Notes under the pieces: generated by a model
Seen by the model: the letters and a program-made list of their open reading frames with translations, nothing else
Database searches by the model: none
What the model was told of the DNA's origin: nothing
Made by a program: the position numbers and the translations under genes
From: Picochlorum sp. SENEW3
Lineage: Eukaryota
Direction: 5' to 3'
DNA length: 64,000 bases
NCBI GenBank assembly: GCA_034226945.1
Contig: CP120453.1
Span: 186,001-250,000 of the forward strand
Shown: positions 1 to 43,578 of the stretch, piece by piece
How the letters are laid out: each line of letters starts with the position of its first letter
Position numbering within the stretch: position 1 is the stretch's first letter

Positions 1-975
1 GCAACAGCGCTGAAGAACATTTCTGCCATATCCTCAACAGATAATGTGTTCCAAGCACCGATTGGTTGGTTGAATGCACTGGCCAGAGAAAACATTCTTC
101 TCATATCCACAACAGATGATGTGTTCCAGTTTCCAATGGGCTGATTGAAAGCCTCTGTTTCAAAGAACATTTCTCTCATATTTCCAACAGATGATGTGTC
201 CCAGTCTCCAATTGACATGTTGAATGCACTGGCTCCAGAAAACATTTGATCCATGGCAGTGACAGAAGATGTATCCCAGTCTTTCAGGGGTTGGTTGAAA
301 CTGATGGCATCGCGAAACATGGCACCCATGTTTTGGACTTGTGATACGTTCCAGTCTCCTACTGGGTGGTTAAAGGCCTGGGATCCGGAAAACATTCCAC
401 TCATGTCAGTAACAGATGATGTGTTCCAATCTCCAATTGATTGATTAAAGGCACCAGCTGACAGGAACATTGCACTCATATCAAGAACAGATGATGTGTC
501 CCAGGCACCAATTGGTTGGTCAAAGGCTTTGGCTCGGAAGAACATTGCTTCCATAGATTTAACAGAAGATGTGTTCCACTCTCCCAGTGATTGATTGAAG
601 ACCTCGGCTCCAAAAAACATGTTCTTCATAGTTGTCACGGATGATGTGTCCCATGTACTCACTGGCGAGTCAAACGCCATGGTTTCAGCGAACATTTCCG
701 TCATGTCTTGCACCAATGATGTATCCCAGCCAACAAGCGACTGGTTGAAAGCAGTCGCTGAAGAAAACATTCGGCTCATGTTTTTCACGCTTGATGTGTT
801 CCAGTGTTTGATTGGTTGATTGAAAGATTGGGCTCCTACAAATATGTTGCTCATATCCACAACGCGTGATGTGTTCCACTCTCCAAGGGGTTGATTGAAG
901 GTGGATGCAAAATAGAACATTCCGTTCATATGAAGCACATCTGATGTATCCCAAGATCCAATGGGGCTATTGAAT
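1..975 (-). repeat. About 13 diverged 75-bp (25-aa) DUF285 repeat units
   Basis: GATGTGTTCCA/GATGTATCCCA...TTGAA motifs recur at about 75-nt spacing. Confidence 0.85.
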
Positions 976-1910
976 GCTGTATCATAGAACAACTGAGACA
1001 TGTTCGCGACGCCACTCGTGCACACTCTCTCAAGACTGTCCCATTGCAACTCATCACCCGCACGGGTACGCAACTGGGTCTCATCAACCTTGGTGTACAC
1101 CATCCCATTCACGATGCCTCTGCTACCTACAGCGGCATCAGGACATAACACTGTCACACCGTTGCTTGCCAAGGAGAAGCCATTGCCACCATCTGGAAGG
1201 CGAGGGTTTGCCGTCAGAGCCGCAATCTCCACTGGAGGCTCCAGGCCTTGTGCAAGAACAGCCTCAACTCCTTGGTCATCCCTCAGACTCCAGGCAAGCG
1301 ACCACGCATTCCGATAGTCATCATATTCAATCTCCAATAAGACATTAGCACTCCCATCAACCACGCGAAGCACCGAGCATACACCCCCGGGCTGCAAGGA
1401 CAGCATATTACCACAGATTTGGTCCTGCTCTGCCACACCAAACGCAGCAGCATTGGGATAGGAGGGGAAGATGAGCCCCACCCTCAGCGACCCAGGAAGA
1501 GGATCTGCCTCCTGACAGTACGACACTTTGCCGCCATCCTTGAAAGATGTCTCAACGAAGCAGCTGTACGACTGATCCAATGCCAGCCCTTGCACCGTCC
1601 CTTGCACAGCCGAGCGACGTACAGGCAACACCCCTTGGACAGACTGCCCTTGCGCAGGAGCATCACACCCTTGCCCCTGGATCACGCACTTGATCGTGAA
1701 TTGGGTGCCTGGCACGTTCGGTCCAGTCTCGAAGCCCACGGAGATGGTCGGCACGTTCACCTGAAGAATGCGAGGCTGCCTCACCGAGGTCAGCAGACGC
1801 TCCGACGCGTCCTCTGCAGAACAAATCCCCCAAGGGACAAACATTACTACTTGCTTTGTTGGTAGAATATTATTAAAAAGGAGGAGGAAACCATAGTAAT
1901 GCAGAAACAT
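1..1910 (-). CDS. DUF285/BspA-like leucine-rich repeat surface protein with N-terminal Cys-containing (FN3-like?) region; 3' end runs off the window
   Basis: Hand translation of the minus strand (not in the ORF track because it is truncated): ATG 1910 [12 protein letters not shown]..., then [12 protein letters not shown]...[14 protein letters not shown], a cap [12 protein letters not shown]...[12 protein letters not shown], and about 13 25-aa repeats such as [25 protein letters not shown]. The frame is consistent at both ends; the start codon is uncertain. Confidence 0.85.
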
Positions 1911-2662
1911 CCGAGGTAGAGGGCACCGTTGTCGTGCTGCGACAACTCCAGAACAAGGCTAACAACCGCAAGGCGGGAACTCGCCACGTCCCGTGTGCCA
2001 CTGTCCAGGCGCTGAATTTTGACACATATATGACACATGTGGATCGACGGGACACCCGCGTGAGTCATAAACAGCGTACCTTGTCCACTCGCCCACCGGT
2101 TGAGCAAGGTGCACACCAAAAGACACCACAACATCAGAAGAAGAACTTGGTCCACGCGCTCTCAGCTGAAACGCCACGTGAATACATAAACCTATTGCAA
2201 CGATGAATAAAAATAATTGGATATCAACAGCAATTGTAGGGACTCCAAACCAGCATCTTCCTCTATGTGTGGATTCCACCCGAATTTGAGTCAACCAATG
2301 TCTGACCGTCAGATGGTCTGACCATCACGTGATTCCGTCGTCCTAGGCCTAAGGTTCGGACAGGGCTGCGTGATTGATATGCATACATGCAGTAGCATGT
2401 TCACAACTCATGCACTACTGAATCTGACAATACGCGATTTTGATATGAATTGTTTTCATTGGAGGTGTCCTCGACACCGTCGTTTTACTCCACAAGAGCA
2501 GCTATAGCTAGGCATCCATGGGCTAGATCTTTACAGATCTCTGTCCCTACATAGAAGATAAGACATCTTGTGATGTACTCGGTACACCCACCACGACTGC
2601 AAAACGAATCAATCTATAAAGAATATAGATATATTAATAGAGAGAGGACGGGCATTGGCGCA

Positions 2663-27297: not shown

Positions 27298-30200
27298 ATG
27301 GGGACATTGAGAAGTGTAGGGTCGCCATGGCGATTGTGGATGATTACCGTCACGATGCTCGTGATGGTGCATCATATACACGCATCAAGATATTTAGATG
27401 GATTAGGAGTACGATCGGGTAGGGGTGTATTAGCGACTGAGGATGATGGTGTGTCTGCACTGGAATCAGAGCAAGCTTCAGTGGCTGTCAAGGTTGAGGA
27501 GGATATGGTCCAGCAGTCTCAGAAAGATGTTTCCACGGAGGGCGAAGAGAAGAGTCGCAGCGATTGTACTTTTGATGTAATTATAGATAGCAGTGAGGAT
27601 GGGAAGTCGACGACATTTAACCCGACACCGGTTTTTGTCGTTGATTTTGGCAGAAATGTGACTGCAAAGAACCCATTAAAGGTATGCGTTTTGGTGTATG
27701 AATGACCGCAATACGAAGACAGACTTTTTTAATAACCAATTCAAAATATGCAGATGTTTGAGATATCTGGCTCGAACAGAGTGGATGTGTTGTATAGTCC
27801 ATCTCTGGGATTGTTGTATGTTCTCGCTGCTGTATCAGACAGGGAATCTCCCCAAAAGGTCACTCTGCAAGTACAGCAAGGTGTGACGGAGGATGTTAAA
27901 GGACAGTTGAATGAATTCGCGGAAAAGACGGTAGAGTATGTTCCTTATGAGGACAGTTCAGGAGCAAATATTATATCTGATGTTGCTGCATGGGGTATGC
28001 TAGGAGGACTGGCCATGTCCTTTGGAGCTACACTCATTTCGCCGAATGCTGCGATAGGAATCGGGGCTATGAATTTTGCTGGTTTTGTTCAAACATTTTA
28101 CATTTCTGGGAATTTACCAATCACCAACATGCCAGAGAACTACAGGGCAGCTGCGAATGGTTTGGACTGGGTGGGTCTCAACCCTCCATATGGTCCAGCA
28201 GCTCCATCTACAAATACTGAGCAGGAAGAGGCCCAAGAAATACTTCAGGACTTGGCTGTGCGGTTACCGTATCCACCAAAGAATGTAACTGGGATTAAGG
28301 AGGACACCCCTGTGACACAGAATCCTCCTGGGGAGAATGACGAAGAAAAACCACAGCCTGGACCTGCATCAGATGGGAATGTTACCCAGGTGGTTGTGGT
28401 CAATCTTCCAGAAGATGAACTGGTTGATCAAGATGGAAAGCCTCCAAATCCATTTAAGGATGAGGAGGATGAGGATGAGGATGAGGAGGAAAAAGAGGAG
28501 GAAAAAGAGGAGGATGTTCGTGAGGACAATGGTGAGGAGGACAAGGCTACACCTGAGGAGAAGGTACCTGCTGAGGACTCTGAGAGCGCTCCGACTACAC
28601 TTGATGAGGAAGCAAATGATGATCAAATACCAGGGATCGTACCTTTGGATGCTGATCTGCCGATAGTTCCTCTGCAGAAAGATCCACTGTCGCCACCTCC
28701 GCCAACTGAAATATCTCAGGACGGCCCAGCAGATACAGACTACACCCTGATGGCAGTCTCGCCTGAAAGTGACGAGTATGCATACGTACAGCCTTTATTT
28801 GGCTCCAAAGCCCCTGCCCCTGCTCCATATACGGAGAATGCAGTAGAAGAAGCCTATGAAGATTTGTACTACACGTATGAAGATGCAGCCTATTTTTTGG
28901 ATCAAAATGGTGACAGCGTTGAGCAGATTGTTGATCCTGGAGACGATGAAATTGGTGAGGGAGATGACCCTCATAAAGGCAATCCTGAGAAGGGTAATCC
29001 TGAGAAGGGTAATCCTGAGAAGGGTAATCCTGAGAAAGGGAATCCTAATAAGGGTAATGGCAATGCTGGGCAAGGCAAACCCCCAAATGAAGCAGATGAC
29101 GATGACACCAGTGTCGAGTCGAATGAGGAAGCAGACGAGAAGCCTTCTATTAAGGAAGAAGAAACTGATGTAGACAGCAATGTAGATAACGAATCATTGC
29201 CTGAAGACGGTGCTGATAATAATGACGATACAAAGGAAGATGAAGCAGAAACAAACAAGGAAGAGAAGGAACTATCTGACGATACAACTGACGAGGTAGA
29301 TGATGATGCTGACGGTGAAGAGGAGGACTATGTATTTGTCGACCCCTTGATCGGTGGGCATGATGATTCACAAGAGGCTGAAGCGCCTGAACCAACTGCT
29401 GATCAAGAAGAATCTGAAGCCCCTGAACCAACTGCTGATCAAGAAGAAGCCGAAGCGCCTGAACCAGCTGCGAATAAAGAAGAAGCCGAAGCACCTGAGC
29501 ATGACACCAACGAAGATTTTGCCTATGAGGATACATCATATACATATGAAGATCCGAACTATCAAATCGATGACGAAGAGCACAAAACAGATGATATGGA
29601 ATCAACACATGATGAAACGGATGAAGAAACTGCGCCAGAACCCATCGATGAGCTAGATGAGGGTCAGAGACGGCGCAAATTGCTTCTTGCAGACCCCCTT
29701 GCATCCCTTGCAAGTTCAGGTTTCAGTTATGTTGTCGCCACAGCCACTCCAGAAGATGTATCAAAAAATGGTACTGTAGGTACTTCGACAGAAGAAGCTG
29801 TGGGTGCGTCAGTCATGTCGAGAATCAGAGCCATCCAAGTCTCAGCTGATGGTGGTCCAACCGACGCACAACGGCTTGATGTGCTCTGGAACGTATTATT
29901 CTGGTCTGCAATGCTTCTCTCTGCAGTATTTTTGGTGCATGCAATCATCCTGATCATCATGAAGATTTTGAAATGCGAAACCATTCCAAAGATGCTCCAT
30001 TTGCCGCGGCTGGAACTGCTGACTTTTACAATTATGTTGCCAATGATTGCAGCTGCCGGAGCAGCAGCACTACAGGCAGAATCGGCCGGTGCTATTGCAG
30101 CGGGAGTTATATTCGGAGTCTTGATTCCTTTTGGATATCTATTCGGTGCTGGAATATTTTTGGCGCTTGCTGTCATCAGGCCAACAATATCCAAACGAAG

Positions 30201-31125
30201 AGCAGTGTATGTCGTCCAACAGAGTGATAATCTCAACATCTCTGCTCCTAGTCCAGCTCAGATTGAAACACTGCGACACTCCACCGACCCCGAGGTTTTG
30301 GTAGAGTCTAGCAACGGAAGTCAATCCAGTATAGGATTAGAGGCATCCATGCTGACCACCCAGATGAGGAATGACATGGTTGAGGAGGAAGAGCCAGTGT
30401 CTGAACAGCCACAGGCCTCTCGTGGTAGAGAGAAGAAGCGATTCTCCGCCTTCCTGTACAGATGGATTGTGTCCCCCATCTTTGGTTTCCGATCTGCATA
30501 TAGAGTGAATCATGGAGATCAGAGCCCTGCATGGTTAGGAAGAGGCAAACTTGATGGAGAATTTGTCAAGAGATTTGGCTGCTTCTTTGAAGACGCCCAT
30601 GGTCCACAAGTATACCGGGTTCGCTCTCGATACGAAACGGTACAGCACGAGGAATCCGACACCGCGAATGGTGGTATCCTTGTTTCTGTGGGTGTCGAAG
30701 GAACAATGGAAATATTGCAAACGTTTGGCATCATATTTGCAGCACTGAAAATGGTCTTGTTTGCAGTCATCATTAATGGACCTGGAGGTGTGGACAACGT
30801 GGCCCAAGTTGTGGTACTTACACTAGTTGCACTTTTGCATATTCTGTACCTGCGAATATGTGTACCATATCGGCTGCGAGTAGAGCTCGCTGCAGAGATC
30901 GTTGCAGCATTGTGTGACATGGGTGTCTTCATCTGTGGCATAATTCTTGTAGCAAAGAAGGATTGGACAGAAACCGAGAGAAACAGCATGGGCATCGCCA
31001 TGCTTGTCCTCCAAGCAGTCGGATTCCTTATTTTCATCACAGTACGAGTCTCTTTAGCAATCCGGACGAGTGCCATGACAATAGCCCCATCAGTACAGTC
31101 ATGGTACAGAAACAGAAAGAAATAA
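27298..31125 (+). CDS. Large polytopic membrane protein: Ig-like N-terminal region, TRP-like (fungal FLC/PKD2-type) multi-TM domain, long acidic low-complexity insert; intron 27682-27753
   Basis: FVQTFYISGNLPITNMPENYRAAANGLDW, FVKRFGCFFED and LYLRICVPY resemble the TRP (PF06011-like) membrane domain; multiple TM helices; the intron is phase-consistent. Confidence 0.7.
28975..29058 (+). repeat. 15-bp tandem repeat (KGNPE, about 5.5 copies) in CDS
   Basis: AAGGGTAATCCTGAG units. Confidence 0.9.
29371..29502 (+). repeat. 33-bp tandem repeat (about 4 copies, EAEAPEPTADQ-like) in CDS
   Basis: GAAGC(G/C)CCTGAACCA(A/G)CTGC recurs at 33-nt spacing. Confidence 0.85.
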
Positions 31126-35313: not shown

Positions 35314-36900
35314 ATGACGACGCTGGCAGAGTCGTTTTTAGCTGATTTGGAAGATCTTTCTGACGAAGACATTCCTGTGAAGCGAGAAGAGGGTTCTACT
35401 GAGGTATGTACATGTGTATTAATTTACATTCTCACGGAATATATGCTCATACTGGCCAGGTGTGTGATGCAGAGAGAGGAAGGAGGAGTTGAGAAGGAAC
35501 ACGGTACTTCATGTTCCAGACTGTTGCATACTGAGCACTATGCGCGTATTATGTCTCAAGTTAGGGATGGATTGAATGATTCTGAGGATGAGAAGAACAC
35601 GAGCACATCTGCATACGAGTACGTGCGCACATTTTGTTTTTTAATACATGTATTCATGTCTTCTCACACTGATTCCACACATTGCTGCAGATTTCTGGTA
35701 GAGTGTAACAAGCTGGTGGTAGAGATTGATAATGACATTGTCAATGTGTATAATTACATCCGAGATAGGTATCGTTCCAAATTCCCAGAGCTGGAGTCTC
35801 TGGTACAGGCTCCTTTGGACTATGCAGCTGTTGTCAAAGCGATTGGGAATGAAATGGAGGTGACAAATGTGAATTTGGACACTATTTTACCTCCTTCAAC
35901 AGTCATGGTGGTGACAGTGACGGCGACCACGACGAATGGGCAGCCTCTGTCGGATGAAGCCTTGCATGATGTCATGGGTGCCTGTGACATTGCCAAGCAG
36001 CTTGATGAGGATAAGACGTGTATTCTAAAGCTGGTGCAGATGAGTATGGAGAATATTGCGCCGAATTTATCTACATGCGTCGGTTCTGAGATTGCAGCAA
36101 AGCTCATGGGAGTTGCAGGAGGACTGCAATCTTTGGCAACCATTCCAGCATGCAATATTCAAGTGTTGGGAGCGAAACGGAAGCATGCTGCTGGGTTTAG
36201 TTCTAAAACAGCCATGCCACACCAAGGATTCGTGTATGAATCTGAATTAGTTCAGAATACGCCTCCAGGGCTGCGTAATAAAGCGGCCAAGTTGGTTGGG
36301 TCAAAGTGCTCCTTGTTGGCCAGAGTGGATGCGCATGGGTCGAATAAAGATGGGTCAATTGGTAGGTCTACGAGGGAGGAGATTGTTCGAAAGATTGAGA
36401 AATGGCAGGAACCTCCTCCAGCGAGAAAGGGAGACGTCCTGCCTGTTCCCGATGCACAGGAGATGAAGAAGACCCGGCGAGGTGGGCGGCGTGTGCGGAA
36501 GATGAAGGAAAAATACGGCATGACGGAGCTGAAAAAACAAGCAAATAGAATGCTTTTCAATCAAGCTGAAGATGAATTCATTGACGGTGAAGAAAGCATT
36601 GGACTTGGTGCTATTGGAAAGGATGGAAGTGGTCGATTGCGAGCTATTGCTGCCCAGCAGAAGCAGAAACTCAGTGCCAAGGCAGCCAAGAAACACGGGC
36701 TGAGAAATTACGGCACAGCTTCTGGCATAGCAACTTCTGGTCTATCATCCTCGTTGGCATTCACACCCATTCAAGGAATAGAGCTTGTGAATCCCAACAA
36801 TGCACTCGGTCACCAGCGAGTCAAGGATGCAGAGCGTGGTGGCACAGAGTCTTATTTTTCTGAGAAATCCGGTTTCAAAAGCAGCATTGTTAAAAAATAA
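35314..36900 (+). CDS. PRP31: U4/U6 snRNP protein Prp31; probable introns 35404-35472 and 35619-35690
   Basis: MTTLAESFLADLEDL, FPELESLV, IAPNLS, PACNIQVLG, IEKWQEPPP, RRGGRR, GLSSSLAFTPIQGIEL. Confidence 0.95.
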   Translation: MTTLAESFLADLEDLSDEDIPVKREEGSTEVCTCVLIYILTEYMLILARCVMQREEGGVEKEHGTSCSRLLHTEHYARIMSQVRDGLNDSEDEKNTSTSAYEYVRTFCFLIHVFMSSHTDSTHCCRFLVECNKLVVEIDNDIVNVYNYIRDRYRSKFPELESLVQAPLDYAAVVKAIGNEMEVTNVNLDTILPPSTVMVVTVTATTTNGQPLSDEALHDVMGACDIAKQLDEDKTCILKLVQMSMENIAPNLSTCVGSEIAAKLMGVAGGLQSLATIPACNIQVLGAKRKHAAGFSSKTAMPHQGFVYESELVQNTPPGLRNKAAKLVGSKCSLLARVDAHGSNKDGSIGRSTREEIVRKIEKWQEPPPARKGDVLPVPDAQEMKKTRRGGRRVRKMKEKYGMTELKKQANRMLFNQAEDEFIDGEESIGLGAIGKDGSGRLRAIAAQQKQKLSAKAAKKHGLRNYGTASGIATSGLSSSLAFTPIQGIELVNPNNALGHQRVKDAERGGTESYFSEKSGFKSSIVKK

Positions 36901-37369
36901 TGCAGATCTTTAATACATTACAAGTACTCTCTTGGATTCGGAACGAACGGCACTAATCTCCTGGGGCACCAAGGAGATGGAAGAGAGAGGCAGAGCATTG
37001 ACAATGGATCCAAGGAAGAGGAAAAAATCACAGCATCCGTTGTGTCTATCAACATTATCTAACCTATCAGCAATGTAACACATGCCATGCTGCATGGAGA
37101 TGTCACGGACTGTATACATGCTGAGACATGAGCGCCCATGCTGTAACCGTGCATAAGATAAGAGTGTCGATGCCTCCAAGAAGAAAGAGATCTTTCTTCC
37201 TAGGCAGCTGCATCGATGCATCCGAGAGGGGCGCCAGGGTCACATGTGATTGGATTGAATCTACTTTTGGGTATCTGTGAGGTGTACTGAATACTTCGTA
37301 TTAGTATTGACTCGCAGATTTACAAAGATTTGTCAACCTGGTAACAGCCGAGTTCGCGATTTGCCCATC

Positions 37370-40300
37370 ATGAAAGGTGTCGTACCTGTTGTTTTTCTTT
37401 TGTCGGTGCAACTATTGAGCGCTGGATTTGGTGCGTATGTGTCGTGTGTCGATAATGTGCGTTACTATTGTCACTATGATGGATATTTTACTCGATATGC
37501 AGTGTCCGGCAAGGTCTGTCCTGGACCAGACCAAAATATTGCTGACTTGGTTCTTGGGTTCTCCAGATTCGCAGAATTAACTGAGACTGCGGGTCTTACC
37601 GAGACACTGAGCGATCTCGGCCCACTCAATGTCTTCGTGCCGACTACTAGCGCTTTCGAAGCGCTGGCTGCACGGCTTGATGTCGACGTCGACGAATTGC
37701 TGAGCAATGTTTCACTCTCCCAGCAGATTGTGAACAATCACATACAAGCGATTGGAGCGAGCTGCAACGGCCCATTGAATGGTACTGTGTCTACTTTATT
37801 ACCGGGATCTTCAATAACAGTGGATGGTAACACTGTGACGGACGGCAGTGGCGCCAGAGCAACTGTGGTCTTCAATGTATCAGCATCCAATGGACACGTG
37901 TATGTGATTGATAGGGTTTTGCTCCCTTCCTCGCCGGCGAGGCTTGATGTGCAAGAGTCTGGAGGGTCTTCATCTCCTCCTGGAGGGGCATCTGAAGTGA
38001 ATGAGGGACTATTCTACGTGGGTTTAAATGGGAAGACTGTGCTGTGCCCTGATGCAGAGGTTGGAGCACAGGGCGAGGTGAATGGGGTGACTTACGTCAA
38101 GAGGGACGAAAGAGGGTTGAGGGACCTCGTACAAAAGGGATTCAATAATGCCACAGCATGGGAGCAGGTGGAGAAGACGTGTACAAGTGGTATTACAGAT
38201 ATGAGCTCCTTGTTCCAAGGGGCTGAGACGTTCGATCACCCCATTGGGTCCTGGGATACAAACAGCGTTGAGAATATGGCATACATGTTCTACAATGCCT
38301 CCTCATTCAACCAGCCAATTGTTGATTGGGACACAAGCAGTGTCACAGATATGAGGTCAATGTTCGCTGTTGCCTCGTCCTTCAATCAGCCCATTGGTGC
38401 CTGGGACACAAGCAGTGTGACAGATATGTATGCCATGTTCGCTGATGCCTCCTTATTCAACCAGCCCATTGGTGCCTGGGACACAAGCAGTGTTACAGAT
38501 ATGGCATATATGTTTGAGTTTGCCACTGCATTCAACCAGCCCATTGGCAACTGGGACACGAGCAGTGTCACAAACATGTATGCCATGTTCAATCAAGCCT
38601 CCTCATTCAATCAGCCCATTGGTGCCTGGGACACAAGCAGTGTTGAGAATATGGCATTTATGTTCTACAATGCCTCCTCATTCAGCCAGCCAATTGATGA
38701 TTGGGACACCAGCAGTGTCACAGATATGAGGTCAATGTTCAATCGAGGCTCCTCATTCAACCAGCCCATTGGTGCCTGGGACACAAGCAGTGTTACAGAT
38801 ATGGCATATATGTTTAAGTTTGCCACTGCATTCAACCAGCCCATTGGCAACTGGGACACCAGCAGTGTCACAGATATGTATGCCATGTTCGCTGTTGCCT
38901 CCTTATTCAACCAGCCCATTGGCAACTGGGATACGAGCAGTGTTACAGATATGGGATTTATGTTTGAAGCTGCCACTGCATTCAACCAGCCAATTGATGA
39001 TTGGAACACGAGCAGTGTCACAAATATGAGGTCAATGTTCAATCAAGCCTCCTCATTCAATCAGCCCATTGGTGCCTGGGACACAAGCAGTGTTGAGAAT
39101 ATGGCATTTATGTTCAATCAAGCCTCCTCATTCAATCAGCCCATTGGTGATTGGGACACCAGCAGTGCCACAGATATGGAGTCCATGTTCAATCAAGCCT
39201 CCTCATTCAATCAGCCCATTGGTGATTGGGACACCAGCAGTGCCACAGATATGGAGTCCATGTTCAATCAAGCCTCCTCATTCAATCAGCCCATTGGTGC
39301 CTGGGACACAAGCAGTGTTGAGAATATGGCATTTATGTTCTACAATGCCTCCTCATTCAACCAGCCAATTGATGATTGGGACACGAGCAGTGTCACAAAT
39401 ATGAGGTCAATGTTCTATCAAGCCTCCTCATTCAACCAGCCCATTGGTAGCTGGGACACAAGCAGTGTCACAGATATGGCATATATGTTTGAGTTTGCCA
39501 CTGCATTCAACCAGCCCATTGGCAACTGGGACACCAGCAGTGTCACAGATATGTATGCCATGTTCTCTGTTGCCTCCTTATTCAACCAGCCCATTGGCAA
39601 CTGGGATACGAGCAGTGTTACAGATATGGGATTTATGTTTGAGCTTGCCACTGCATTCAACCAGCCAATTGGTGATTGGGACACGAGCAGTGTCGCAGAT
39701 ATGGGGTCCATGTTCAATCAAGCCTCCTCATTCAATCAGCCCATTGGTGCCTGGGACACAAGCAGTGTTGAGAATATGGCATTTATGTTCTACAATGCCT
39801 CCTCATTCAACCAGCCAATTGATGATTGGGACATGAGCAGTGTCACAAATATGAGGTCAATGTTCAATCGAGCCTCCTCATTCAACCAGCCCATTGGCAA
39901 CTGGGATACGAGCAGTGTTACAGATATGGCATATATGTTTGAGCTTGCCACTGCATTCAACGAGCCAATTGGTGATTGGGACACAAGCAGTGTTGAGAAT
40001 ATGGCATTTATGTTCTATCAAGCCTCCTCATTCAACCAACCTATCGGTGCCTGGGACACCAGCAGTGTCATAGATATGTATGCCATGCTCGCTGCTGCCT
40101 CCTTATTCAATCAGCCCATTGGTAGCTGGGATACGAGCAGTGTTACAGATATGAGATTTATGTTTGCGCTTGCCACTGCATTCAACCAGCCAATTGGTGA
40201 TTGGGACACAAGCAGTGTCACAGATATGGACTCCATGTTCAATCAAGCCTCCTCATTCAATCAGCCCATTGGTGCCTGGGACACAAGCAGGGTTGAGAAT

Positions 40301-40834
40301 ATGGCATATATGTTTGAAGCTGCCACTGCATTCAACCAGCCAATTGGTGATTGGGACACAAGCAGTGTTGCAGATATGAGATATATGTTCAATCAAGCCT
40401 CATCATTCAACCAGCCCATTGGCAACTGGGACACCAGCAGTGTCACGGACATGTATGTCATGTTCGCTTTTGCCTCATCCTTCAACCAGCCCATTGGTAG
40501 CTGGGATACGACCAGTGTGACAGATATGGCATATATGTTTGAGCTTGCCACTGCATTCAACCAGCCAATTGGCAACTGGGACACGAGTAGTGTCACAAAT
40601 ATGTATGCCATGTTCGCTGATGCCTCATCCTTCAACCAGCCCATTGGTAGCTGGGATACGAGCAGTGTTACAAATATGGGATTTATGTTTGATCTGGCCT
40701 CCTCATTCAACCAGGATCTGTCCACCTGGTGTGTCTCCAAGGTAGAATCTGCTGATGGGTTTGCCATCAATAGCGCACTGCAAGAATCTAATTATCCACC
40801 TGCATTTGGAAGCTCAACGAATTGCATCGCCTGA
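37370..40834 (+). CDS. Secreted fasciclin (FAS1) + DUF285/BspA-like repeat protein; probable intron 37431-37502
   Basis: Signal peptide [22 protein letters not shown]1 H1 [10 protein letters not shown] and H2 [15 protein letters not shown]; cap TVLCPDA...[12 protein letters not shown]; 33 full 25-aa repeats and terminal [11 protein letters not shown]. Confidence 0.92.
38231..40729 (+). repeat. Tandem array of 33 complete 75-bp units plus a terminal partial unit
   Basis: Consensus TTCAAYCAGCCMATTGGY-NNN-TGGGAYAC-AGCAGTGT...; 38231 to 40706 is exactly 33 x 75 nt. Confidence 0.97.
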
Positions 40835-41039
40835 GACAATCCACTCATGTAGAAAGATGCAATCTCTGAAGAGACAAGAAGGAGACAAGTCGATCGTATA
40901 CGAGTAATTACGAATGTAATGTACTCTTTCCAATAAACAATGCGCTCGGTCAATTCGGTTGCCACAACAACCCCGGCGTCTTTCATTAAAAAATTCGAAA
41001 TTAAAAAACACTCGTCCACGAGATGAAATAAAAATGTGA

Positions 41040-42434
41040 ATGAATTGGCACTCCATTTTGCGTCGGAAAGAATGGACTGGCGGACAAGGCGGGGACGCAC
41101 TTCGAGCGCATCCTCTGACTTGGGTCCATATCGACGACAAAGCCAATGCCCGATGCCTTCGGATGTCCACAGAATTCTTATTAGTAGACTTACATGTACG
41201 ATATAGGGATCTGGTGGTCGTAGACCCCACGATCGCCGTTCCGATGGGCACAGTCATTTTTATCCGGCCAACATGCATTGTATTAAATCTAGACGTCGGT
41301 GGGCATATCCGAATGGTTATTTGTGAGAACCAGTTGTTTATACTTGGGGTTCCGGATGAAAAGGATACGTCGGTATCGGCGATACCGACTGTCGAGCATC
41401 CCTTTGTGCAGTACCTGTCCAAGTGCCTCCTTGACAATCGACACGTGATGCCATACGAGTTGGTTGCATTGGAGGCTGCGTTGAACACGGCAGTGGGCAT
41501 CTTGACAAAGGATGTGGACATGTATGATGATATGTCGATGGAGAAGATTGAAGCGATGCTTCGAAATGTGAATAGGGACACGTTGGAAGGCATTCGAAAT
41601 ATCAAGCATGGTGTTAATGTGTTGCAGCTCCGAGTTTCTCGGTTGCAGACGGAGATACAGGAGATTATGGAGGATGATATGGATATGGCGGATTTGTATC
41701 TGAAGAAGAGAAGGAAGAAGATGAAGTTGAAGAAGCCAGCGTTTCCTTCAACAGAGAAGACAAAGAACAAGAAGAACAAGGACAACAAGGAGCAGAGCAG
41801 CCATAATGCGACATGGAAATCTAGGAAATCCCATGGTATACGCATGTATCGTCCGTTTCGACCGCGTCGATATGGAGGTATGAAGCGGGCATTGAGAAGG
41901 GCGAATTCACGTCGTGGCCCAGATGATATGCTGATACAGCGGCGGTTGGCTCGCAAACTACAGCGGAGACATCATCATGGGGATGATGATAATGATGAGG
42001 ATGTCTTTTCTGCAGCGGATGATGCGATTCATGATGTTGGACAACCACTACCTATAGATCCACATGAAATAGAAGAAGCAGAAGATTTATTGGAAGCCAT
42101 TTTTGTGGACAGTGATATTCTGAATAGGAGGCTGTCAGCTATTGAAGATCGGGCAAAAGACGCAGAAGGTCTGCTGGAATTGGACCTTGATCAGCGACGA
42201 AATGAATTGGTCGGTCTCAATCTCGTCGTAGCAACTATTGCCATGGCATTTGGATTTGGTGCTCTTGTTGCCGGCGTCTTTGGTATGAATCTGGTCAACA
42301 GTGACCTTGTCGATGAGGCATGGGTGCTCCCAGTCGTCCTGGTCGTCACCGTGGTTCTCTGTGTGGCGCTCATTGTGGCAGTCGTCTGGTATGTTCGCAA
42401 GAGAAAGCTCATGTTCATCCCTACAACCCTGTAA
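41040..42434 (+). CDS. MRS2: MRS2/CorA-family magnesium transporter (copy 1)
   Basis: RYRDL..DP, PYELVALEAAL, DDMDMADLYL, LDQRRNELV, FGMN motif and two C-terminal TM helices. Confidence 0.92.
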   Translation: MNWHSILRRKEWTGGQGGDALRAHPLTWVHIDDKANARCLRMSTEFLLVDLHVRYRDLVVVDPTIAVPMGTVIFIRPTCIVLNLDVGGHIRMVICENQLFILGVPDEKDTSVSAIPTVEHPFVQYLSKCLLDNRHVMPYELVALEAALNTAVGILTKDVDMYDDMSMEKIEAMLRNVNRDTLEGIRNIKHGVNVLQLRVSRLQTEIQEIMEDDMDMADLYLKKRRKKMKLKKPAFPSTEKTKNKKNKDNKEQSSHNATWKSRKSHGIRMYRPFRPRRYGGMKRALRRANSRRGPDDMLIQRRLARKLQRRHHHGDDDNDEDVFSAADDAIHDVGQPLPIDPHEIEEAEDLLEAIFVDSDILNRRLSAIEDRAKDAEGLLELDLDQRRNELVGLNLVVATIAMAFGFGALVAGVFGMNLVNSDLVDEAWVLPVVLVVTVVLCVALIVAVVWYVRKRKLMFIPTTL

Positions 42435-42456
42435 TATTATTACTGTTACTAAGAAT

Positions 42457-43578
42457 ATGTTTATTAGATCATGGAAGAAGGAGGATGGTTCGACAACACC
42501 CCTGTTGCTGTCTGAACATTCGAGCCATCACCCAACAACAACACCAGCAGCGGGAGACCACATTGTTTGTATTGCAGAAACCCTAGATGGTCAGGATATA
42601 TCAAACAAAAGATTATACTCTGCATCATTAAATCAGTACGATGTGCACGAGATGATTGAGATTGGGGCATGTACGCTGAGGACCTCTGCGTGTTTTGACC
42701 CTCGTTTCACACCTCCATTTCCGACAGTGTTTTCCATCCGACAGCGGTCCATTCTCTTTAGTATGCACTGCATCAGGATGATTATATGCCCCAAAAAGTG
42801 TTATATTATCAGCATACCGAAAATAAATGAGCCTTTTACACCACAGCCTGCAGATGCAGTGTACCATCCATTTGTTGCCCGGGTTATGGAGATGCTCAAT
42901 CAGGGCGATGATACGGTTCCATTTGAACTCAAGCTTCTTGATGCGGCAGTGTATGGCGTTGTACATGCGTATGAAGCAGAGATATTTGAATTAGAGCATG
43001 ATGCGCATGCGCATGGTTCTAAACTTGCCAAGATTAGTGATACTCATGAAATGACGCTTGTTGAGACAATGCATGAGATTAAAGTGCGGATGTCAAAGAT
43101 CAATGCGTCATTGGAGGAGATACAGAAGGAGCTTGATACGATGTTTTCGGATGATATGTCTCAGTATAGAGCATTCTGGGGGAACAACAACACCAGTGAT
43201 GATCATGTCCAGTTGGCAGAAGATATTTTGCAAGACATGTATCTCAATGTGACGTTTGGATTGAGACGATTGAGGATACTTTCAGAGTATATTGAATCTC
43301 GTGAGATGATGGCCAGAATATCGTTGGATGCGAGACGGAATCAGCTGGTCGGGTTGGAACTGCTTATTTCAAACATTAGTCTAGGGTTTGGATGGGCCAG
43401 CATGCTTGGGGGAATATTTGGGATGAATCTTTGGAACATGTATTTTGCAGACTCAAAGCCGATATTCCTTGTGGTGATGTTTGTGCTTACAGTTGGTACA
43501 ATTGCATTTCCCATTTACTTTCGAAACTTTATGCGCAAAAAAAGGCTGCAATTTCTACCAGAAACAATTGCCTCGTAA
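42457..43578 (+). CDS. MRS2: MRS2/CorA-family magnesium transporter (copy 2, divergent)
   Basis: PFELKLLD, LDARRNQL, GIFGMNL, two TM helices; first ATG at 42457. Confidence 0.88.
   Translation: MFIRSWKKEDGSTTPLLLSEHSSHHPTTTPAAGDHIVCIAETLDGQDISNKRLYSASLNQYDVHEMIEIGACTLRTSACFDPRFTPPFPTVFSIRQRSILFSMHCIRMIICPKKCYIISIPKINEPFTPQPADAVYHPFVARVMEMLNQGDDTVPFELKLLDAAVYGVVHAYEAEIFELEHDAHAHGSKLAKISDTHEMTLVETMHEIKVRMSKINASLEEIQKELDTMFSDDMSQYRAFWGNNNTSDDHVQLAEDILQDMYLNVTFGLRRLRILSEYIESREMMARISLDARRNQLVGLELLISNISLGFGWASMLGGIFGMNLWNMYFADSKPIFLVVMFVLTVGTIAFPIYFRNFMRKKRLQFLPETIAS

Follow-up and report, generated by a model that had tools for sequence, protein, structure and literature searches.

A probable secreted fasciclin-PARCEL (DUF285) protein with a mosaic 33-unit repeat array in Picochlorum sp. 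SENEW3

The DNA analyzed here, a window of 64,000 nucleotides from contig CP120453.1 of Picochlorum sp. SENEW3, encodes a real and probably expressed secreted PARCEL protein, in which a known repeat family has acquired a new domain partner, a fasciclin (FAS1) domain. We consider it probable that this is a secreted or wall-bound binding protein remodelled by ordinary tandem-repeat recombination; its location, its binding and the recombination pathway are what we infer. The genome around the window comprises 13.85 Mb in 14 contigs, with about 46% GC. A sequence-only reading of the window had described a fasciclin-DUF285 protein with about 33 cassettes of 75 bp, and Pfam matches, alignment of the units and TRF confirm that description. 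The features of the gene are collected in Table 1.

Table 1. Features of the FAS1-PARCEL gene and its immediate surroundings (positions in the window)
Feature	Positions	Strand	Basis
Exon 1, start codon and predicted signal peptide	37370..37430	+	hydropathy; layout as in secreted P0068
Intron, 72 bp, in frame, GT..AG	37431..37502	+	public model, L055, X14 contig
FAS1 domain, diverged copy of the Picochlorum FAS1 subfamily	37556..37927	+	Pfam PF02469, paralog identities
Linker, Ser/Gly/Pro-rich	37928..38008	+	sequence
PARCEL solenoid N-cap, Cys pair	38009..38230	+	common to the genome's DUF285 genes and bacterial BspA-named proteins
33 x 75-bp DUF285/PARCEL units	38231..40705	+	TRF, alignment, TIGR02167
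Duplicated block, about 7 units; second copy 9 units further on, at 39258-39790	38583..39115	+	533 bp, 20 mismatches
Tandem duplication of a single unit without mismatch (units 13 and 14)	39110..39299	+	115-bp exact match, lag 1
C-cap, Cys pair, then stop	40706..40834	+	hydropathy; dN/dS vs L055
Stretch from Prp31 stop to MRS2-like start, skipped or replaced in X5 second branch	36902..41034		contig joint

Gene structure, predicted product and origin

The gene occupies positions 37370-40834 of the forward strand, and its uninterrupted frame translates into 1154 amino acids. The sequence-only reading was correct as to the open frame but overlooked the 72-bp GT..AG intron within it, which is supported by a public gene model, an ortholog and an RNA-derived contig. 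Picochlorum model P0062 lacks exactly the 24 amino acids of 37431-37502; the ortholog, L055, has a stop codon and a 2-bp deletion at the intron position; and the contig from run X14 starts at the acceptor (37502), preceded by 6 unaligned letters. Because 37431-37502 is an intron, the spliced product has 1130 amino acids rather than 1154. None of the listed runs is recorded as RNA, and X14 is treated as such because it skips two in-frame GT..AG introns of the neighbouring Prp31 gene (35402-35470 and 35619-35690). Its cover of 37502-38353 and 40621-41467 suggests that the FAS1-PARCEL gene is transcribed in a related strain.

Pfam identifies Prp31 on one side of the gene and an MRS2-like magnesium transporter on the other, where two adjacent frames are of magnesium-transporter type, 41040-42434 (MRS2-like/CorA in Pfam) and 42289-43578 (by resemblance to the eye). 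Elsewhere in the window, a long acidic frame (27736-31125) contains tandem repeats of 15 bp (28981-29058) and 36 bp (29372-29498), with hydrophobic segments toward its end.

Pfam places a Fasciclin domain (PF02469) at residues 63-186 (E 1e-14, 55.3 bits, profile positions 2-123 of 123), which, with the N-terminal hydrophobic segment, upholds the FAS1 fusion proposed earlier. The protein scores 1346 bits against DUF285 (PF03382, cut-off 25) and 554 bits against TIGR02167 (cut-off 30). Three cysteine pairs are likely, one each in FAS1, the N-cap and the C-cap, to judge by the sequence. Hydrophobic 19-residue windows (above 1.6) start only at residues 1-8 of the 1130-residue product; the signal peptide is predicted from this hydropathy, which over all 1130 residues revealed no membrane anchor, hydrophobic tail or cytoplasmic part. 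Since it lacks a membrane anchor and a cytoplasmic part, the protein is not by itself a signalling receptor, and the earlier label of receptor was too strong.

The N-cap and 10 units were modelled by AlphaFold with a pLDDT of 97.7 and one beta-bridge per unit, at unit position 15. Structures matching the model are LRR solenoids with Z scores of 15-19 (maximum 18.9), and the top Foldseek match is the FNIP protein 7zal (E 1e-4, 18% identity, TM-score 0.41); model and matches support the LRR-like solenoid that had been suggested. Sequence searches of the PDB gave no real match and no solved DUF285 structure, and the ESM Atlas gave no usable match for the protein. The sole beta-ladder of the model, at position 15, adjoins positions 17-18; because equal positions stack in such a coil, geometry would unite positions 17, 18, 21 and 22 in one strip. 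Mapping of the motif onto the FNIP consensus (PMC9525666) suggests that this variable strip may lie at or beside the concave face. The solenoid would show a stacked strip of variable, partly aromatic residues, and probably binds protein or glycan. FAS1 is an adhesion module, and by analogy with its family it probably anchors the protein in the wall or matrix.

The origin of the protein is best explained by a fusion in which a fasciclin domain native to Picochlorum was joined to a PARCEL/DUF285 solenoid with its caps. Its FAS1 domain shows 43-50% identity to its nearest paralogs in the genome; these in turn are 60-68% identical to P0068 of Picochlorum soloecismus. Other members of this Picochlorum FAS1 subfamily are stand-alone or tandem. 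P0068 shares the signal peptide, the Cys-Pro start and a FAS1 domain (42% identity) with the protein studied here, but is about 178 amino acids long and has no repeat array. Among 259 proteins, a non-exhaustive sample from three word searches, an HMMER search (best 150 of 6901 matches) and cluster look-ups, FAS1 and PARCEL occur together only in the query and P0062; because these two alone carry both parts, domain shuffling at the level of the lineage appears to account for the fusion. The genome contains at least 11 DUF285 loci. Each lies in a long open frame; their N-terminal regions vary and their N-cap is shared. This cap is also present in bacterial proteins named BspA. A protein search with the C-cap found no Picochlorum protein, and an exact look-up found no identical entry in the collection searched. 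No title or abstract opening in the literature on DUF285 and Picochlorum describes the gene; supplementary tables might list it.

Several related loci were also noted. A second DUF285 gene on the minus strand (window 1-1958, C1:185.9-188 kb) extends beyond the window start and has about 14 older, diverged units (mosaic p=0.63) and a different N-terminal region. The DUF285 paralogs L030 and L015/L035 (C6:1,042-1,048 kb) are neighbours, 89% identical over 833 bp; their likeness at the 3' array ends and C-caps suggests a possible tandem duplication or conversion. Locus L037 (C8:352-354 kb) encodes four near-identical tandem FAS1 domains with Pro/Glu/Ala linkers between them.

P0062, a 213-amino-acid model from Picochlorum sp. 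BPE23, matches the protein at 99% identity in the N-terminal part. A truncated allele in BPE23 was considered and rejected, as a second, false intron with its start at 38078 suffices to derive P0062 from DNA like that of the window; the X14 contig passes through this region without a skip. The BPE23 assembly was repeat-masked ahead of gene calling (PMC9615354). We read the 213-residue model as an annotation artefact, the BPE23 locus being known here from the protein model. Annotation may hide such genes: the public model ends before the array.

Array structure and turnover

All 33 units are exactly 75 bp long, with zero indels, and lie in a single unbroken frame in one exon (TRF: period 75, 32.5 copies, score 2259). 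Entropy across the units is highest at positions 7, 17, 18, 21 and 22, in agreement with the earlier observation that variation is concentrated at the dipeptides. There are 26 different dipeptide pairings in the 33 units, drawn from 11 and 15 dipeptides. The recurrence of VENMAF with MFYN, MFNQ or MFYQ also agrees with our counts, in which ENMAF is followed by MFYN three times and by MFNQ and MFYQ once each. Half-cassettes thus do recur in new combinations, as the sequence-only reading held, but they are not freely shuffled: the mean difference between units is 16.8 nt, about four sequence families can be distinguished, and much of the array has arisen by recent block duplication. The 533-bp block recurs at a 9-unit lag; units 6, 15 and 21 are identical, as are units 13 and 14, for which the depth of run X1 is consistent with two copies. 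Exposed aromatics occur at positions 17, 18, 21 and 22 and at none of the other polar positions, and position 18 is aromatic in 52% of the units here vs 19% in the family.

Tests for intragenic recombination support the exchange proposed from the sequence. A copying model of the array requires 29 segments at a cost of 448, compared with 510±8 when unit order was shuffled and 516±10 when codon columns were shuffled (12 shuffles each). The two-parent gain was 65 vs a codon-column null of 40.6±5.4 (p=0.001), in three phases. Covariation of neighbouring codons could also beat these permutation nulls; even so, exact multi-base joins and blocks require copying, and unit 12, for instance, joins two other unit types exactly. 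A PHI-like test was significant with a 2-codon window (p=0.0007) and not with windows of 4 or 6. Breakpoints, which are not independent events, fell between the two variable dipeptides in 5/12, 6/9 and 7/14 cases vs 21-23% expected (p 0.09, 0.007 and 0.026). That this clustering is a trait of the PARCEL family was considered and rejected, since nine other arrays gave 16/103 vs 21.5 expected.

Dyad symmetry appears weak in the coding DNA of this array, compared with the PARCELs of Röske et al.; our own whole-unit test, which differs from the MEME analysis of those authors, gave 32/75 (p=0.66), with a folding z of -1.29. Seven short inverted pairs are found near codons 15-21 of the unit. Across a short dyad (16 nt, 94%), as at 38421-38586 and in comparable pairs of units, the Tyr-Ala variant of the dipeptide is the reverse complement of the Ala-Tyr variant; the two are related by exact inversion, in place, of a loop of 5 nt (p 0.04-0.05, post hoc). 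Loop inversion may lie behind these variants, which we regard as a weak lead. As a source of diversity, hairpin-loop inversion was rejected: only 2 of 1034 pairs showed it in 15 arrays (2 of 17 loci, with fewer than 3 units, were left out), with 0-2 in controls.

The array also varies between lineages. The ortholog L055 is 87% identical in DNA (dS about 0.23) and keeps both caps, the C-cap with a dN/dS of 0.14, but has 12 units rather than 33. Of its 10 and 8 dipeptides, no more than 4 and 3, respectively, recur in the array of the window, and its internal units lie 8-18 nt away from any unit there. Because L055 comes from a metagenome, collapse of its array is conceivable, but with a longest internal exact repeat of 35 bp it is not likely.

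Four of 21 runs (X1, X5, X6 and X14) were compared as contigs, which drop rare variants. X1, likely from the same strain, showed no substitutions and no rearranged joints across the gene in its contigs. Three of its seven array pieces end exactly where the assembly predicts, most others end close by, and depths fit. An assembly artefact was rejected on the fit of these ends and depths to the assembly, an agreement that is not independent because X1 may be the source data. In the N-terminal part, letters were changed at 10/1443 positions in X5, 17/1739 in X6 and 20/852 in X14, and units 24-26 and 31-33 match X5 and X6 with 0-4 differences. A 180-bp contig of X6 crosses words repeated in the window, a hint that the X6 array may differ; low X6 and X14 cover in parts of the array was not counted as evidence.

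A second branch in X5 joins 36901 directly to 41035, supported by 30-letter sides, at a depth of 93 vs 164-171 for the gene and 231-232 for the flanks. The branch leaves directly after the Prp31 stop and returns 5 bp before the next start, and the 1-kb flank is unbranched. X5 thus includes a second haplotype or strain in which the gene is absent or has a very different sequence, and the gene is possibly dispensable.

Mosaic units, block duplications, the largely different units of L055 and the gene-skipping branch of X5 together argue that the array does turn over. We propose that in-register 75-bp units would exchange by unequal crossing-over and gene conversion, a pathway that would yield block duplications, chimeric junction units and length changes as heritable, ordinary tandem-repeat turnover, presumably with no dedicated diversification machinery behind it.

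Selection and possible functions

Over the 33 units, the scaffold has a pN/pS of 0.05. At five variable sites, picked post hoc, pN/pS is 0.99 for 528 pairs and rises to 1.49 for the 96 close pairs. Private changes comprise 8 replacements over 11.5 variable sites vs 12 silent changes over 14.6 sites (0.69 vs 0.82 per site, p=0.82), a comparison of low power with 20 changes. An excess of nonsynonymous change at the variable sites, to which the sequence-only reading had pointed as a test, is therefore not apparent among private changes, and pN/pS there is about 1. The scaffold is under purifying selection, with the exposed positions probably drifting near-neutrally.

A variable non-self recognition or decoy protein would also fit a number of these observations, with ordinary recombination supplying variants that diversifying or balancing selection retains; viruses, bacteria, grazers or mates would select new dipeptide pairings and the gene-less or divergent haplotype. 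The number of pairings (26), the gathering of breakpoints between the variable dipeptides (p 0.007-0.09), unlike in the nine other arrays, and the aromatic enrichment at position 18 are in keeping with such a role, as are 33 vs 12 units at a dS of about 0.23, an X5 branch running from the Prp31 stop to 5 bp before the next start beside an unbranched 1-kb flank, and motif mapping to FNIP LRRs that puts these variable residues at the concave face or next to it (PMC9525666). The close-pair pN/pS of 1.49, the gathering of breakpoints and the aromatic enrichment count against near-neutral turnover. It is harder to reconcile with private changes that show no replacement excess, with the close match of units 24-26 and 31-33 to X5 and X6, and with variation at the same positions across all PARCELs, and we hold recognition to be possible, on balance unlikely. 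We are more doubtful of a polymorphic self/non-self or anti-parasite locus, at which exchange would be focused between the dipeptides and balancing selection would keep the gene-less or divergent haplotype. The exchange site would there adjoin the short dyad, the first dipeptide forming its loop, and new pairings would arise often. If true, a green alga that is minimal and genetically tractable would possess a binding protein whose combinatorial variation is heritable.

It is highly improbable that the protein is a structural or stress protein of the wall for which length and a regular Ser/Thr/Asp surface matter and the variable residues do not. Expression of algal DUF285 has been linked to high latitude, low light and nitrate limitation, and the solenoid has been likened to antifreeze proteins (PMC11992049, bioRxiv 10.64898/2026.09.29.755320); published hints of this kind, which extend to host-virus exchange, are correlative. 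A pN/pS of about 1 at the variable sites accords with such a role, but exposed aromatics restricted to positions 17, 18, 21 and 22 do not, nor does tolerance of a nearly threefold change in length. Programmed somatic assembly from donor cassettes, in the manner of the lamprey VLRs to which the sequence-only reading had likened the array, is scarcely credible. It would account for an LRR-like fold with caps at both ends and for mosaicism below the level of the unit, but the gene is complete in the genome with both caps, rather than an incomplete germline gene of VLR type. DNA searches of the genome with 3601-bp and 300-bp queries found no near-identical donors (best matches outside the gene, 68-73%). 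The 48 DUF285 matches counted in the genome, a lower bound, all lie in open frames of 303-1191 amino acids, and the contigs of X1, from which rare variants drop out, fit the assembly without substitutions or new joints. These observations do not demonstrate adaptive-immunity-like assembly in an alga.

The secreted or wall-bound binding protein, remodelled by ordinary recombination, is the reading we prefer. In marine phytoplankton, DUF285 ranks with the most highly transcribed of the unknown domains (PMC11992049). The Picochlorum gene offers a case in a cultivable alga: its array is young and has a readable history, its ortholog differs in length, and what looks like a null haplotype occurs naturally, which together make the function of PARCEL proteins in algae testable.

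Comparison with known repeat systems

The closest relatives of the array are other PARCELs (PF03382, TIGR02167), which share its tandem unit of 25 residues, with conserved hydrophobic and variable intervening residues, as well as variable repeat numbers, secreted or surface location and several copies per genome; fusion to FAS1 sets the Picochlorum protein and P0062 apart from the other PARCELs in the sample of 259 proteins. Röske et al. (2010) described the variable positions, the variable repeat numbers and members in green algae and diatoms (PMC2996958); that paper leaves the selected or neutral origin of the variation undecided and reports no PARCEL from the archaeal genomes of its time. 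In a Nitrosopumilaceae archaeon (L056), about 40 PARCEL units give a strong signal of mosaicism. The most variable positions in 709 units of 69 other proteins are 21, 24, 17, 18 and 22, and the entropy profiles of nine of nine other arrays correlate with that of the window array (0.55-0.85). The same mosaic test was significant in 7 of 10 arrays, among them one archaeal, one flavobacterial and one Helicobacter array; seven further loci, out of 17 in all, had fewer than 6 units and were left out. Variable positions and mosaicism are thus family-wide in PARCEL arrays and not special to the Picochlorum gene. The nearest-neighbour distance between units is 4 nt here vs 9-29 nt in nine other arrays, by which measure this array appears unusually young and fast-turning among those compared.

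FNIP/FGxxFN LRR proteins of CroV and Dictyostelium (7zal) resemble the array in their LRR-like solenoid, near-identical repeats, FNQPI motif and small number of variable residues, which lie at the concave face or next to it in the FNIP proteins (PMC9525666) and may do so in the array; they differ in having a 22-residue rather than a 25-residue repeat and no FAS1, and the TM-score is only 0.41. Lamprey VLRs likewise have a capped LRR-type solenoid, and the recombined pieces are shorter than one repeat; their germline gene is incomplete, and somatic, deaminase-linked assembly draws on hundreds of donor cassettes (PMC12264053), whereas neither an incomplete gene nor a donor library was found for the Picochlorum array. 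The exon-shuffled receptors of Ectocarpus (PMC3341825), algal repeat proteins that are also remodelled unit by unit and proposed to serve variable recognition, differ in having one repeat per exon, reported diversifying selection, and GTPase or NB-ARC signalling domains; the FAS1-PARCEL array lies in one exon, with no such selection detected and no signalling domain. The Ectocarpus receptor set is a closer analogue of the Picochlorum gene, and an algal one, than the VLR system.
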